NCBI GenBank assembly: GCA_963664225.1
Contig: OY760937.1
Span: forward strand, 2,272,001 to 2,336,000
Origin: Verrucomicrobiia bacterium
GTDB taxonomy: Bacteria > Verrucomicrobiota > Verrucomicrobiia > Limisphaerales > UBA1319
DNA: 64,000 nt
Direction of reading: 5' to 3'
Part shown: piece after piece, positions 57,490 to 62,901 of the stretch
Position numbering within the stretch: the first letter of the stretch is position 1
How the letters are laid out: every line of letters starts with the position of its first letter
The notes under the pieces: generated by a model
What the model saw: the letters and a program-made list of their open reading frames with translations, nothing else
Databases searched by the model: none
Told to the model about the DNA's origin: nothing
Position numbers and translations under genes: made by a program

Positions 57490-59456
57490 GTAGAGTAGAG
57501 AGGAGAGCACGGGATGAAAGGCGCAAAGGCCAATGACCGCCGCTCACCTCTCCCTCGTCAAACCGGACATGCAGATTTCCCACATCCGGCTTTCGCCAGA
57601 GTCGTCTTTTCCAGATTGCATTCACAATGCCTTCAGACCCAGTGTTTCGAGATGGGCATAGAGCGTGACTCCCTGACGGACGCGCCAGCCCCGCTGGCTT
57701 CGTCGTCGCAGGTGTTTGCCCAGCCGCACTCTCACGAAGTGGTTGATCTGGCGAAAGGCCCGTCGGGGTTGTCCGAGGTTGAAGTAGTTGCTCCAACCCC
57801 GCAAATGACGGTTGATCCGCCCGATCAACTCCGGCAGCGGCGTATGACTTTGCCCGGCATTGATCAGCAGTCGCAACGCCTGCCTCTCCCGTTCCATCGC
57901 CTTGCCCGAAGGACACAGGTTGAGGTAGTGAAACGCCCTGCCGAATTGATCCCGGTCATACCGGAAGGTGTAGCCCAGAAAGTCCAGGCTTTGCTCGTTG
58001 ACGTTGACCACCCGGGTTTTGTCCCGGTTGATTTCCAGTGTGAGCCAGCCCTCCAGCTTTTCCTCAATCCATGCTCGCAGCTTGGGACCCATATACCGGG
58101 CCATGACCACAAAGTCGTCCGCATAGCGAACGAGCCGGGCATCCGCCCAGTGCGCCGGTCCATCCGCCCTTTGGAACAGGTGGTCGAACCAGTGCAGGTA
58201 TATGTTGGCCAGTAACGGAGAGAGGACTCCGCCTTGCGGCGTGCCCCGATCCCGGCGGTTGACCCGAGGCGGTTCCTCTCCTTGGGGAGGTTCCACCACG
58301 GGGGCCGCCAGCCATTGCCGGATGAGTCCCAAAACCGCGCCGTCCACCACGCGCATCCGCACGCAAGCCAGAAGCTTGTCGTGAGGGATGCTGTCGAAGT
58401 ATCCGGACAGGTCCGCGTCATACACTGCGTTCTTCCCCTCCTTCAGGTGTTTTTGGAGGGTTTGCAATGCGTCGTGCGCCGACCGTCCGGGCCGAAACCC
58501 GTAGGAACAATCCTCAAAGTCCGCTTCGAAGATGGGCTCCAGAATCAGCAATACCGCCGCTTGCACCACCCGGTCCTTCACCGTCGGGATTCCCAGTGGC
58601 CGCAGTTTTCCGTTTGCCTTCGGTATATAGACCCGCCGCACCGGTTGGGCGCGGTAGGTCTTGTCCCGCAGGCTCTGCCTGATCGTTCCCAGAAACGCCG
58701 CTTCACTTTCAGGTGTCGCGGTGATCTGGTCGATGCTCACTCCGTCCACGCCCGGTGCCCCGCCATTGCGCCGCACCGCAGCCCATGCCGCTTGCAGCAC
58801 CTCCGGCAGGAACACCAGTCCGTAGAGGCTGTAGAAGCGGAATCGCTTCTCTTGTTTGGCTTTCCGGCCCAGCTTCTGTCTCAGTTCCTGAAGTTTGGGC
58901 GGCAGGATCGCTTCCCGAAAGGAAAGTTCCTCCACCGCTTGTTCTGTCGTGGAAGTTTTCACTTCAATCAGCTCCAGTTCCCTCTGACTCGGCTTGACTC
59001 TGGCCAGGGCTCCTTGGCTCCATCCCGGCTTGACCGGGATTTCGCAGCTACTATGAGCCCGTCCGACTCCCTGATCCTGAGCGCCCGCCGGTTATGGCTT
59101 CCCGACGTGCGTTCCCCGGTCTCGGGACCGAGGTTCAGGCAGGGTCTCCCAAGTTCCTGATGGTTGTTTGGGTACGCGCTGTCTCCTCTGACCCCGGGGA
59201 GCTTGAAGGGTGCTTCTGGTCGAATCTTCCCCTCCAATGCTGGCTTCACCTTCTCTGACAGGCTGGCCACTCCCGCTTTAGAGTAACGAGGCTGAATCGA
59301 GTTCGCAGACGCTACGGCTCGCACCTTTGCCTTGCCCAGCTTGAACGCGGCGGGTCGCCCCACCACGCTTTGGACGCGGCTACATGACTCTCGACCTGTT
59401 ATCATGATCAACTCGTTGCATTTGACTACAGCCACCAAACTTTGCTTGGCGCTTTC
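57490..59456 (-). mobile_element. Group II intron with RT/maturase ORF
   Basis: Domain V AAGCCGGATGTGGGAAATCTGCATGTCCGGTTTG, domain VI with bulged A and a 3' end of CTACTCTAC. The 5' boundary is inferred from EBS1 CAGAGA (59257-59252) pairing with exon TCTTTG. Confidence 0.88.
57622..58962 (-). CDS. ltrA: Group II intron reverse transcriptase/maturase, no endonuclease domain
   Basis: [50 protein letters not shown] and X domain LRGWSNYF. Confidence 0.95.
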
Positions 59457-59536: not shown

Positions 59537-59980
59537 TCACAATGGCTTGCCGCATTGCTGGCAGAATTTGGAGTCTTCTTCGTTGAGTTTGCCGCAGCTC
59601 GGGCACTTGATCATGATGACTTTTTCGGATTTGCCGCCGAGGCTGATCTGGGCCTCGTCCAGGACGTCTTTGATCATGCCCCCGGCCATGCGGCTGTAGG
59701 GCTCAAGGTCCTCACGCGCCTTGTCGGGGTCCAGAACAATGCCTGAACCGGCCAGGCCGCGCGCGCCAATGCCCCTGATGATTCCGCCGACAATCAAGAG
59801 GCCCATGCCTCCAAAGGCCCGGAACATCATGGATTTTGCGTTGGATTCGAAGTTTGAGAAGTCTCCAAAGTGCAATGCAAAGGAGATAAATACCGAGGCG
59901 AACAGAAGCCCTCCAATGACCATCACGGCTGTGCCGAGGTAGTATGCGGTCTTTCGTTCGTCTGAAATGGGCTGTTTCAT
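59537..59980 (-). CDS. Membrane protein with C-terminal zinc ribbon
   Basis: Two TM helices and CPSCG...SKFCQQCG. Confidence 0.85.
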   Translation of the reverse strand: MKQPISDERKTAYYLGTAVMVIGGLLFASVFISFALHFGDFSNFESNAKSMMFRAFGGMGLLIVGGIIRGIGARGLAGSGIVLDPDKAREDLEPYSRMAGGMIKDVLDEAQISLGGKSEKVIMIKCPSCGKLNEEDSKFCQQCGKPL

Positions 59981-60088
59981 GTTATGTCCGGTTCGGCTGA
60001 GTATGAAATCATTTCCGCGTCCCAGTATTATACCGGCTTTGACTGGATGCCACTATAATTGCCGGTCGGTTTTGGAGGGAGAGAGGAG

Positions 60089-60147
60089 GGCTCGGCAGGA
60101 ACGTGGCCCTGACGGCGAAGATGGCTCGGCGGGAGCCTCGCCCTACC
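60089..60147. repeat. Two REP-like units (GGCTCGGCGGGAGCCTCGCCCTACC and a degenerate copy)
   Basis: 60123-60147 and 60089-60113 share GGCTCGGC.GGA.C..GCCCT. Confidence 0.55.
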
Positions 60148-60227
60148 AATGATCCTTGCTGGCGTCACAGAGGGTTATGGGGCGCGTTGATCCAAAAATA
60201 TCACTGGACCCGTATGGCATTCGTTTT

Positions 60228-60254
60228 GCAGATTGGAAATCTGCGGTACGGCAG
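60228..60254. repeat. Left part of the REP-like palindrome interrupted by IS110
   Basis: GCAGATTGGAAATCTGCGGTACGGCAG matches 61641-61667 with one mismatch and continues at 61452. Confidence 0.8.
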
Positions 60255-60262
60255 CAACGGTG

Positions 60263-61201
60263 TCATGGAGCAACACAGAATTTGGGATCTTTTAGGGCAT
60301 GATTCATCAATACGATGAGTTTCCGCATCACTGCTGTCAGCGCCACTTTGGGCTTCTTGCCCGCCGCCCGCAGCCTCTTATAAAAGGCCTTGAGGATGGA
60401 ATTGCAGCGCACCGCTGCCACGGAGGCCATGTAGAGGGCGCGGCGCACCCCGGTCCGGCCGCCACCAATGTGACGCTGGCCTTCCCAAGGGCCGCTCTGG
60501 CGCACCCGCGGGGCCAGCCCCGCCAGGGCTGCCGCCTGGCCCCGGTTGAGGGTTCCCAGTTCGGGCATCTGCGCCACTACCGTCACGGCCGTCAGCATCC
60601 CCACGCCGGGAATTTCCGCCAGGCGGGTGACTTGTTTTTGCTCGACGGCGTGGCGGGCCAGGGCGGCGGTTAATTCGGCCAGCACTGCGGCCAAACGGCT
60701 TTCCAGATGCCGTATCAGCTTGGCGTGTTCGGTGCGGACGAAGGGTGAGTCGTGGTGTTCGGCCTGATTTTTGGCGATGGTCAGGAGATCTTTGAGTTGT
60801 TCGCGCCAGGTCACCAGGGCGGTGAGCTCAGTGTGGGCTGGCGTCGGGGCGGTGGTGGCAGCGGGCTCCAGGGCCTTGCCGAAGGCGCTCAGGCTGGCAG
60901 CATCGATCGGATCGCTCTTGGCCCGCTGGCCGGTGGCGCGGGCGAAGGCACGGGTCTGGGCCGGGTTGACCACGCTGACGGGTAAACCGGCCGTGTGAAG
61001 TGCCGCCACGACGGCACGCTCATAGCCGCCAGTGGCTTCGAGGATCACGTGGGCACCGGGCACAGCACCCAGACATTGGACCAGTTGTGTGTGCCCCGCC
61101 GCATCGTTGGTCACGTCCAGGAGCCGTCCGGGAAGGTGAAGTTGGAGAGTGGCCTTGGCGACGTCCAGACCGACATGGACAGGGGTGGATTTTTCAGTCA
61201 T
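60263..61201 (-). CDS. IS110 DEDD recombinase (312 aa)
   Basis: VGLDVAK, ILEATGGYE, KSDPIDA, IPGVG, GLAP..RQSG (catalytic Ser) and ALTAVMRKL. ATG at 61201. Confidence 0.95.
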   Translation of the reverse strand: MTEKSTPVHVGLDVAKATLQLHLPGRLLDVTNDAAGHTQLVQCLGAVPGAHVILEATGGYERAVVAALHTAGLPVSVVNPAQTRAFARATGQRAKSDPIDAASLSAFGKALEPAATTAPTPAHTELTALVTWREQLKDLLTIAKNQAEHHDSPFVRTEHAKLIRHLESRLAAVLAELTAALARHAVEQKQVTRLAEIPGVGMLTAVTVVAQMPELGTLNRGQAAALAGLAPRVRQSGPWEGQRHIGGGRTGVRRALYMASVAAVRCNSILKAFYKRLRAAGKKPKVALTAVMRKLIVLMNHALKDPKFCVAP

Positions 61202-61210
61202 AATATTAAA

Positions 61211-61435
61211 GTTGTTCGGACTCATTCTTGCAAATACGAGCTGGCGTTGTAACACGCCGCTCTGGTAACGGTTCGAGTTTCGGACAAAGGCGAGCGCGAT
61301 TCATGCTGCCGTACGGTCTGGCTTTCACCAGACCAAGATTGGAACGAACACGCGTCCGCCGTCCCTTCCCCGCCTGCAGGCGGGGAAGGGACACCACTTC
61401 TTTCTTGTTCAACGCGAACCAACAAACAAGTGGCA
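61211..61435 (-). ncRNA. Predicted bridge RNA (5' hairpin, target-binding loop, donor-binding loop)
   Basis: Guides match the flanking target (TTCCAATCT, GTACGGCAG) and the circle junction (ACCGTTAC, TGCAAG). RNA ends are approximate. Confidence 0.85.
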
Positions 61436-61451
61436 AATTCAAACATACAAG

Positions 61452-61716
61452 GTTGGAAACCTGCGCTACGAGTTGCGGTTTGGACGCGCAAGCAGGTGGG
61501 TGGCTGCGTAACAGCAGCAACGGTGACTGTGCTTTGGGTTGCTGAGGGTTCAGAGCGGTAAGCCGGTCTGGAGACCGGCGCTCCACTTGCGGTTTTGCAC
61601 ATTCCTGAAGATTGGATTGCGCGCGTGCATTCCACGGTCTGCAGATTGGAAATCTGCGATACGGCAGACAGGATGTCTGCGCTACGAGTTGCGGTCTGGA
61701 CGCGCAAGCAGGTGGG
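61452..61716. repeat. REP-like palindrome cluster with a 40-bp direct repeat
   Basis: 61461-61500 versus 61677-61716 differ at one base; hairpins GCCGGTC/GACCGGC (61562-61579), GCAGATT/AATCTGC and GCAGAC/GTCTGC. Confidence 0.8.
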
Positions 61717-61785
61717 GCGGGGTTTTCGATGATCGCCGTTTTAGCTGTGAGGCCGGGCGGCGTTGCGTTATAGTGGGTGCTGAGA

Positions 61786-62901
61786 ATGGATAGTATTCAA
61801 TTAGACGCGAAGGTTAAGGAATTCGAAGATCGTGTGAACGGGACGTTGACGCCCGCGAAGGACGGGCCGTTCTGGCGCGAGACCTGGGCACTCGTCAAGG
61901 AAATCGACCGCGAATTCAAGACGGCTGTTTATGCCACGGAGGCGGATAAAAAGGCCGCCCTGTACCGATTCCAAAATATTGTGGATCAGATGCGGATCGA
62001 TCGGAAACGGGAGGATGCAAGGCAGGCGTCCCAGGCCAAGGGATTGACCGTGCTGCGATCCAGGATCATCAATCAGGCGCGGGCGGCGTGGCCGCGGCAG
62101 GACGGGTTCGCGGTCATGGTGAAGGAATTGACGGGTTCCAATCTGGCCGATCTGGCCGAACCGGCGCCTGTAAAAAAGGTTAAAACGCCTCCTTTGATGC
62201 CGGACACCGATCCGCGCGAGCGCGAGAGATACCGGCTGGAGAAATTGTCCGAGCGCATGCAAGTGGCGCGGGATCTTTTCGATGCGCAAAAGGAGGATCT
62301 GGTGCCCAAGGCCCAGACGGATTGCGCCAGGATTCTGGAGGCGGTTGAGGCCGAGTTAAACAAGGCCCTGGAGCTGTGGAAGAAGGAAACCGTGGAGCGC
62401 AAGCAGAAGCGGGGCGCCACTTTCGAGCAACGGAAGCAGGAGAAGCTGCGCCTGATCGCGGAGATGCACAAGCTCATTGCGAGCGCGGGCCAGGCGGGGT
62501 TCAAGGACCGATCCGACGCGCTGATGGCGGAGTGGAAAAAGGTGGGGTCCGCAGGCATGGATTATGAGGACGACCTTTGGGCGAAGTTCAAGAGCGCGAT
62601 CAATTCCTTCTGGGAGGCCAGAAAGGGCAGCCAGACTCAGAAGCTCCAGGCCCGGTTGGACAACCAGGTGGATTTTTTGCAGAAGATGCAGCAATCCGTG
62701 GAGCACGACAAAGGGGTGCTGCGAGAGAAACGCGAAAAGCTGCTGAACGTGTTCGATGGTCCCCGGGCGGAACTGATCCGCAAACAGTTGGGGGCCGTTG
62801 TGGTATCGCTGGAGCAAAAAATCCAGGCCAAGCGGATCAAAGTCAAAGAGCTTCAGTCAGAGATCACGGCGATCCGGCGCAATCTGCGGGATGCGGAATA
62901 G
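61786..62901 (+). CDS. Coiled-coil protein with DUF349-like repeat
   Basis: EWKKVGSA...EDDLWAKFKSAINSFW; highly charged and helical. Confidence 0.75.
   Translation: MDSIQLDAKVKEFEDRVNGTLTPAKDGPFWRETWALVKEIDREFKTAVYATEADKKAALYRFQNIVDQMRIDRKREDARQASQAKGLTVLRSRIINQARAAWPRQDGFAVMVKELTGSNLADLAEPAPVKKVKTPPLMPDTDPRERERYRLEKLSERMQVARDLFDAQKEDLVPKAQTDCARILEAVEAELNKALELWKKETVERKQKRGATFEQRKQEKLRLIAEMHKLIASAGQAGFKDRSDALMAEWKKVGSAGMDYEDDLWAKFKSAINSFWEARKGSQTQKLQARLDNQVDFLQKMQQSVEHDKGVLREKREKLLNVFDGPRAELIRKQLGAVVVSLEQKIQAKRIKVKELQSEITAIRRNLRDAE

Follow-up and report, generated by a model that had tools for sequence, protein, structure and literature searches.

The locus described here raises the question of how an insertion sequence chooses the place at which it inserts, and whether that choice is made by an RNA encoded within the element itself. 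The bridge-RNA mechanism has been in the literature since 2024, when orthologues were already predicted in their thousands. Within the window, by which we mean the whole 64,000-nucleotide stretch of contig OY760937.1 (Verrucomicrobiia bacterium) that was analyzed, an IS110-group insertion sequence of 1195 bp occupies positions 60255-61449 on the minus strand, with CT on each flank; coordinates below refer to the minus strand unless another strand is given. A preliminary description had proposed that this element carries a bridge RNA with four readable guides, and every sequence string on which it relied, flanks and ends included, is present on that strand where it had been placed. We consider it very probable that this is a complete IS110-group element that chooses its insertion site by means of a bridge RNA from its own left end.

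The boundaries of the element are defined by its copies. It starts with TGTATG and finishes with ACCGTTG, and five copies of 1195 bp with these same ends are found in the genome. On the left it is preceded by the target TTCCAAC (61452-61458), which is the 3′ arm of a hairpin in a host repeat, and by one copy of the CT core (61450-61451); on the right it is followed by the second copy of the core (60253-60254) and by the right target GCCGTAC (60246-60252). The junctions accordingly read TTCCAAC-CT (61458-61450) and CT-GCCGTAC (60254-60246). CT is found on both flanks of five of five copies, and this core dinucleotide is the only duplication at the junctions. No terminal inverted repeat and no end-to-end inverted pair was found among the 25 longest of 73 inverted pairs in the repeat search. 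The recombinase gene (60263-61201; 312 aa plus stop) leaves a non-coding left end of 248 nt and a right end of only 8 nt past the stop codon, a layout that places the element in the IS110 group and not in the IS1111 group by the criterion given in the available text of PMC11208160. At 1.3 kb from the element, a 446-aa frame with RVT_1 and group II intron maturase domains is located at 57622-58962 on the same strand.

The recombinase matches PF01548 (DEDD_Tnp_IS110; E 9.6e-18) and PF02371 (Transposase_20; E 2e-18), and aligns over its full length with the IS621 transposase 8wt6 (phmmer, E 5.2e-35) and with ISCro4 9t56 (E 6.2e-34). It has both the DEDD RuvC-like domain with four acidic residues and the C-terminal Tnp domain with Ser-Gly: D13, E55, D97, D100 and S236-G237 align with IS621 D11, E60, D102, D105 and S241-G242, the catalytic residues named in the accessible portion of PMC11208158 (the numbering of the deposited IS621 chain is that of the paper plus 2, an offset derived from the motif). 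An alignment of 35 proteins brings together the window protein, 32 relatives and those of two sister elements in this genome; within it, D13, D97, D100, S236 and G237 are invariant (35/35) and E55 is kept in 34. Related loci, 80 in all, were obtained from a scan of one genome per species. The closest relative, on a 1.9-kb metagenome contig, has 70% protein identity, followed by Verrucomicrobiota at 52-62% and by Alphaproteobacteria and others at 35-47%.

The left end encodes a conserved, structured RNA. The 248-nt sequence folds at -108 kcal/mol (z = -6.28), and none of 200 shuffled sequences was equally stable. A consensus fold of 12 aligned upstream regions contains 44 pairs, 29 of them with compensatory change; 91.4% of the paired cells can pair, compared with 77.2 +/- 1.0 after shuffling (0/500 reach the observed value) and with 39-46% when partners are slid by one to three columns. 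The parts follow one another as a 5′ hairpin, an internal loop with an inner hairpin, a linker, and a second internal loop with an inner hairpin; each internal loop has an outer stem as well, and the structure shows covariation. The 5′ stem-loop (61361-61392), which is inverted pair I1 of the repeat search, has perfect arms of 16 nt, and 12 of the 14 pairs of this helix 1 are changed on both sides among the relatives. In the target-binding loop, the 5′ strand (61346-61360; helix 2) and the 3′ strand (61289-61302) of the outer stem enclose an inner hairpin with a GAAA loop (61334-61315; GGTCTGGT-GAAA-GCCAGACC), in which all four pairs of helix 3 are compensatory. Each of the five copies has an A.C mismatch at 61355 in the outer stem. 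In the donor-binding loop, seven of the nine pairs of helix 5, which belongs to the inner hairpin (61238-61262; stem GAGCGGCGT/ACGCCAGCTC), show compensatory change. Across relatives the stems are conserved and the loops variable.

The RNA had been delimited as 61435-61211. The modelled core is 61393-61214, and the limit at 61435 takes in one extra conserved upstream hairpin (61394-61434), of whose 10 pairs 7 show compensatory change among 10 sequences. The exact ends of the RNA given here are putative, as is the activity of the window copy itself. A covariance model (R1) of the 180-position core, built from 12 relatives, gave 10 hits in the element's own genome, namely its five copies plus five of sister IS110 elements, three of one and two of the other. 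Among the 80 related loci, 74 had plus-strand hits adjoining or upstream of the recombinase gene, down to 37% protein identity; the six without a hit were L033, L071, L082, L094, L095 and L096, of which at least L033 has nearly no upstream DNA. A scan of 59800-62000 against Rfam 15 (E up to 10) gave chance-level hits only, with no bridge RNA family among them; the best, with E 0.3 and 20.6 bits where the threshold was 40, belonged to an unrelated family.

The first internal loop can be read against the flanks of the element. The left target guide TTCCAATCT (61336-61344) has the sense of the target top strand, and so would pair with the bottom strand, and it ends in the two core bases. On the other side of the inner hairpin lies the right target guide GUACGGCAG (61306-61314). 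In the window copy, the left guide matches 8/9 and the right guide 9/9 bases of the flanks. The string GTACGGCAG (61314-61306) occurs twice in the 64-kb window, as the guide and as the complement of the right flank, against 0.21 occurrences expected from shuffles. TTCCAAYCT occurs seven times against 1.16 expected, an excess explained by the fact that this string belongs to a repeat family. An independent repeat search also returned an 11-nt perfect inverted match (pair I14) between 61314-61304 and the right junction 60256-60246, in which the right target guide and the next two bases are set against the last two bases of the element, CT and GCCGTAC.

The relation between guides and flanks was also examined across relatives. 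Loops were taken from the model alignment, the loci were grouped into 39 guide families, and one locus was used per family. Element ends were set without use of the target loop: the right end as the left-donor-guide heptamer plus CT with at most one mismatch, and the left end as CT followed by TG, Y and R, with TGTA preferred. Unique boundary candidates were obtained on the left in 48/62 loci and on the right in 52/62. The left guide matched the left flank at 4.09 of 6.85 positions in 33 cognate pairs, compared with 2.05 in 1,038 non-cognate pairs; the right guide matched the right flank at 5.31 of 6.88 positions in 32 cognate pairs, compared with 2.14 in 978 non-cognate pairs. On neither side did any of 20,000 shuffles reach the observed sum. 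The left side was low (0-2 of 7) in 8/33 families; they were retained in the totals, and some appear to reflect errors of register made by the boundary rule. Two earlier procedures had been set aside. Under a first boundary rule, the left end was placed where the reverse complement of the right donor guide had its nearest match, and at several loci (e.g., L025, L030, and L034) this position was wrong. A test that scanned for the best guide match at any CT (200 nt upstream, 750 nt downstream) was too noisy and was replaced by the fixed-boundary test; in it the cognate guide was strictly best in 5/36 loci on the left and 6/29 on the right, and the best site was often the true junction.

The guides can be delimited from the same families. 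On the right flank (28 families), agreement with the guide is 86-100% at positions +1 to +5 and drops to 36% at +6 and 43% at +7, the background level seen in non-cognate pairs (32% and 39%). The first two bases on the 3′ side of loop 1 are GT in 23/33 families. From the per-position matches and this conserved GU (61314-61313), the programmable right target guide in this clade is best described as the core plus five bases (7 nt), which in the window element corresponds to ACGGCAG (61312-61306). The right guide had been called long and fully complementary over 9 nt; the 9/9 match is real for the window copy, and the length is overstated for the clade. We attribute the match partly to coincidence with the conserved GU, opposite which the other four copies have AT or TT at +6/+7. 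Some orthologues with right target guides longer than the four bases of IS621 are described in the available text of PMC11208160. On the left flank (23 families), matches fall from 83-91% at -1 to -4 to 57% at -5, 48% at -6 and 22% at -7.

The second loop can be read in the same way against the joined ends of the element, with ACCGTTAC facing ACCGTTGC and CAAG facing CTTG. The left donor guide ACCGTTAC (61265-61272) specifies ACCGTTA-C, compared with ACCGTTG-C at the actual right end, with a single A.C mismatch, at position 7. Among relatives, the left donor guide and the actual right end vary in concert (ACCGTTG, ACGGTTG, ACAGTCG, ACCGTTA, and ACGGTAG). The putative right donor guide is AU-UUG-CAAG (61227-61235), in which CAAG pairs with CT and TG and AU, beyond a 3-nt bulge, could form pairs with the left-end bases A13 and T14. 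The right donor guide of IS621 is described as discontiguous in this manner (A157-U158 / C162-G165) in the accessible part of PMC11208158, and relatives with UU at the place of AU have AA in the left end. The pairing is probably discontiguous in our element as well. The contiguous pairing of TGCAAG (61232-61227) with one G.T, as suggested initially, could still form, and the IS621-like pattern fits at least as well.

Beyond each 3′ guide lie two bases that correspond to the handshake positions as defined in the available text of PMC11208158, and these are complementary to partner DNA at position 7. In the target-binding loop they are CA (61304-61305), complementary to TG, the last two bases of the right end, and part of pair I14. 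In the donor-binding loop they are AA (61225-61226), the first A being complementary to the T specified next to the core by the left target guide. In 32/32 families (29 C-G and 3 U-A), the base that follows the right target guide complements the final right-end base (donor position 7), a value reached by 4/20,000 shuffles, and the base after CAAG is complementary to the guide-specified core-adjacent base in 20/27 (0/20,000 shuffles).

The copies within the genome (one contig, 5.78 Mb) provide a second line of evidence on site choice. All five copies are exactly 1195 bp and four are identical; the RNA is identical in all five, and the window copy differs in codons only. All five are inserted in one repeat family, CGTAGCGCAG-[9 nt]-CT-GCCGTWY-CGCRG-RTTTCCAAY-CYGC, which forms two tandem hairpins, with the element in the 3′ arm of the first. 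The reconstructed pre-insertion sites are TTCCAAC-CT-GCCGTAC for the window copy, TTCCAAC-CT-GCCGTAT, TTCCAGT-CT-GCCGTTT (two copies) and ATCCTGT-CT-GCCGTAT. Their left targets match 8, 8, 8, 8 and 6 of 9 guide bases, respectively; the 6/9 site ATCCTGT-CT was used nonetheless. The presence of other copies at sites unrelated to the guides would have spoken against the proposal, and what was found instead is that all five lie at CT-GCCGT sites of a single repeat family. The two TTCCAGT copies (G000 2.570 and 2.579 Mb) have near-identical right flanks, and the five copies may therefore represent four independent insertion events.

A census of all CT sites on both strands (538,890 sites), scored on the six left positions adjacent to the core and on the five right positions upheld by the comparison of families, contained no perfect guide match. 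Occupied sites were found in the class with five left and five right matches (4/8 sites) and in the class with four and five (1/45); the class with six and four had none (0/6), and there were none elsewhere. Under random choice among CT sites, the probability of at least four of five insertions in the top eight sites is ~1e-19.

The repeat family has features of its own. Its head, CGTAGCGCAG, is present in 56 copies, often in arrays with a period of ~200-900 nt (e.g., G000:C1:2221736-2224194, 1962858-1964492, and 3670061-3671605), and there is a variant that is four bases shorter and without the insertion core context. A joint from 60249 to 61451 in DNA runs X3 and X5, which skips 1201 letters, was considered as a sign of excision and rejected: it is four letters short of the true empty site, its shorter side is only 22 letters, and it fits the paralogous repeat that is 4 nt shorter. 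In at least three repeat copies (window ~61516-61532, minus; G000:C1:4456913, minus; G000:C1:3481336, plus), the right-end sequence (C)ACCGTYG-CT replaces the left-target loop; a normal right half follows, and the element itself is absent. The 4456913 sequence is exactly what would result if a copy at a ACATCCTGT-type site had undergone deletion between two GACA microhomologies, and these element-less repeats may be scars of lost copies. A decayed fragment at G000:C1:3572927-3573005 (L011) retains GGTTTCCAAC-CT and, at 96% identity, the initial 67 nt of the left end before unrelated DNA begins; it looks like the relic of an old insertion.

Two sister IS110 elements of 1155-1173 bp are found in the same genome, L110-L112 and L113-L114 (G000:C1 1.738, 1.795, 3.173, 0.771 and 2.702 Mb). 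Their recombinases are 53-56% identical to that of the window, and the L110 frame is cut short at 274 aa. The sister elements have nearly the same donor ends and different target loops, TTTCCTTCT / GCGAGGAG and CCATTCCCT / GTCGGGAG. They are located at C/T-rich sites resembling their own loops (5/7 and 4/7 matches on the left, 4/6 and 4/6 on the right). In relatives from alphaproteobacterial metagenome bins (L075-L078, L083-L093, L098, and L101), AT replaces the CT core; their right target guide ends in AT, and AT is found at both junctions, e.g., ATCCGGG-AT with the left end TGTATG.

Transcription of the bridge RNA may depend on the circular form of the element. A -10-like hexamer, TATGTT (61442-61447), in the left end and a -35-like hexamer, TTGCTC (60268-60273), in the right end would be separated by 17 nt across the circle junction, forming a candidate promoter only when the ends are joined. 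The combination TTGCTC-17 nt-TATGTT agrees with the consensus at 7/12 positions, and TTG is found at the -35 place in 22/28 families. The concept of such a junction promoter comes from the available text of PMC11208158, and by analogy with IS621 we infer that the bridge RNA is transcribed from it. A promoter scan found no minus-strand promoter in the integrated state. On the plus strand, a promoter-like site at 61176-61204 (TGGACA-17-CATAAT, 10/12 to consensus; one found against 0.2 expected) opposes the start of the recombinase gene and points into the bridge RNA region, where it could give a possible antisense transcript.

Sequences related to the bridge RNA are present in public data. Eight public runs contain part of the element, and four were compared against it. 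Two RNA libraries from two studies, labelled as soil metagenome, yielded one short contig each, covering 61220-61391 (172 nt) and 61220-61352. Their common 3′ end at 61220 lies one base past the closing stem (GAG, 61223-61221), and the letters beyond it are presumably sequencing adapters. The contigs stem from a relative, with 4-5 differences; such libraries can contain DNA, and the contigs do not show the ends of an RNA. Both have the same four differences, at 61304, 61335, 61339 and 61341, and one differs also at 61355, where the A.C mismatch of the outer stem becomes G-C. Two of the shared differences turn the left target guide into TTCTAGTCT, a third falls on the base that follows it and the fourth on the second handshake base; the right target guide is unchanged. 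The contigs give a weak hint that the bridge RNA exists as a discrete species and that its guides drift. Cover of the recombinase gene in the RNA runs consisted of only two pieces of 32-34 nt with 90-95% likeness, a scarcity to which we attach no weight, and no circle junction was seen in the four runs compared.

Taken with the published mechanism, a probable course of events can be outlined. The bridge RNA has one or two 5′ stem-loops followed by two internal loops, the first of which would read the target. The second would read the junction at which the ends of the circular element meet: ACCGTTAC would bind the right end, and AU..CAAG the core and left end. The two-base handshake extensions after each 3′ guide would match the partner DNA after strand exchange, which four subunits of the 312-aa DEDD/Ser recombinase, assembled as a tetramer, would carry out adjacent to CT. 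In nature, the element targets the 3′ arm of the first hairpin in the tandem-hairpin repeat scattered over the genome.

Several other readings deserve consideration, of which the one with the most to recommend it concerns the window copy in particular. The preliminary description had called its recombinase intact. The reading frame is uninterrupted and none of the five catalytic residues is missing; three codons distinguish it from the four identical copies (T6A, W232R, and R307K). W232R, found in the window copy only, affects a residue four positions ahead of the catalytic S236 that is Y, F, W or H in 34/35 aligned proteins, the R of the window copy being the sole exception. Contigs from the DNA runs carry the W232 variant of the four copies, and an exact look-up in a collection of 15 billion proteins found neither variant. 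It is possible, if doubtful, that W232R weakens the recombinase and that the window copy, still of the bridge-RNA kind, is non-autonomous and mobile only with the recombinase of its sister copies, which carry the same RNA. Against this stands IS621, an active element with R at the position aligned with 232, for which reason the substitution need not disable the enzyme.

A different explanation would have the choice of site depend mainly on recognition of the hairpin repeat, by protein or through structure, with RNA matches contributing little. In its favor, the arms of the hairpin keep pairing through compensatory changes (GCAGGTT-TCC-AACCTGC, GCAGACT-TCC-AGTCTGC, and GCAGACA-TCC-TGTCTGC), all five insertions are in the 3′ arm of such a hairpin, and one of them is at the site with only 6/9 left-guide matches. 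For ISPpu10, the accessible part of a preprint (10.64898/2026.03.19.712850) describes the target stem-loop as a second layer of specificity. This explanation is nonetheless improbable as the main one, given that loops track flanks across 32-33 families from different phyla with unrelated targets, and that the commonest hairpin variant, which matches the left guide less well, is rarely occupied (one of 45 sites in its class, compared with four of eight in the better class). Far less credible still, and in our judgment nearly negligible, is the suggestion that the left-end structure is a leader that regulates the recombinase gene, with complementarity to the flanks as a by-product of insertion into repeats. 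The structure does end 13-19 nt ahead of the start codon, and TTCCAATCT is common in the host repeat, as its sevenfold occurrence in the window illustrates; such a leader would not account for guide-flank covariation on both sides in 32-33 families, for covariation at the handshake positions, or for loops that vary while stems are conserved.

Site choice by the bridge RNA could also have consequences for the host repeat. The three element-less repeats with right-end sequence, together with the changes in the RNA-library contigs (two in the left guide and none in the right), are the basis for a reading in which element and repeat shape each other: lost copies would leave donor-like half-sites readable by the donor loop, the bridge RNA would drive recombination between chromosomal repeats, and drift of one or two guide bases would retarget a lineage among repeat variants. 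We regard this extension as unlikely.

The comparison with known systems favors the bridge-RNA reading. The architecture claimed initially, that of IS110/IS621 bridge RNAs, is upheld by the agreement of protein family, RNA fold, strand sense of the four guides, the other copies and cross-species covariation. As far as the available text of PMC11208160 and PMC11208158 describes it, IS621 of Escherichia coli (177-nt bridge RNA) shares both protein domains with the window element, as well as the catalytic residues D, E, D, D and S-G; its RNA likewise lies in the long left end and follows the order of 5′ stem-loop, target-binding loop and donor-binding loop. Shared features extend to the CT core in all four guides, the 9-nt left target guide and 8-nt left donor guide, the possibility of a discontiguous right donor guide, the handshake positions after each 3′ guide, and a target in a repeated extragenic hairpin element (REP in the case of IS621, as in that of ISPpu10). 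The window element differs in being a distant protein match (phmmer E 5e-35) with donor and target sequences of its own, in its programmable right target guide (7 nt, compared with 4 nt in IS621 as described there), in its extra upstream hairpin, and in residue 232, aromatic in this clade and R in IS621. ISPpu10 and ISPpu9, IS110-family elements of Pseudomonas putida, likewise insert in one conserved intergenic stem-loop repeat with multiple copies per genome, according to the accessible portions of 10.64898/2026.03.19.712850 and PMC12288879; host phylum, guides and repeat family are different. The IS1111 group and its seekRNAs, as presented in the available text of PMC11208160 and PMC13604230, belong to the same family of recombinases and likewise have target and donor loops in their RNA; they differ from the window element by having the RNA in the right end and long subterminal inverted repeats.

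The element is thus well supported, on the basis of its sequence, as a new example of a known bridge-RNA system and not as a new kind, and the supplementary lists of PMC11208160 may include this clade or element already. It adds a compact and fully annotated orthologue (protein of 312 aa, RNA core of ~172-180 nt) whose host lineage is distant from E. coli. Its 7-nt programmable right guide, compared with 4 nt in IS621, could mean higher intrinsic specificity. The genome also amounts to a natural experiment, in which three sister elements have common donor ends and different target loops, and the genome-wide census indicates that guide match ranks the occupied sites. The element would therefore be a reasonable candidate both for tool development and for the study of how guides drift along a repeat family.
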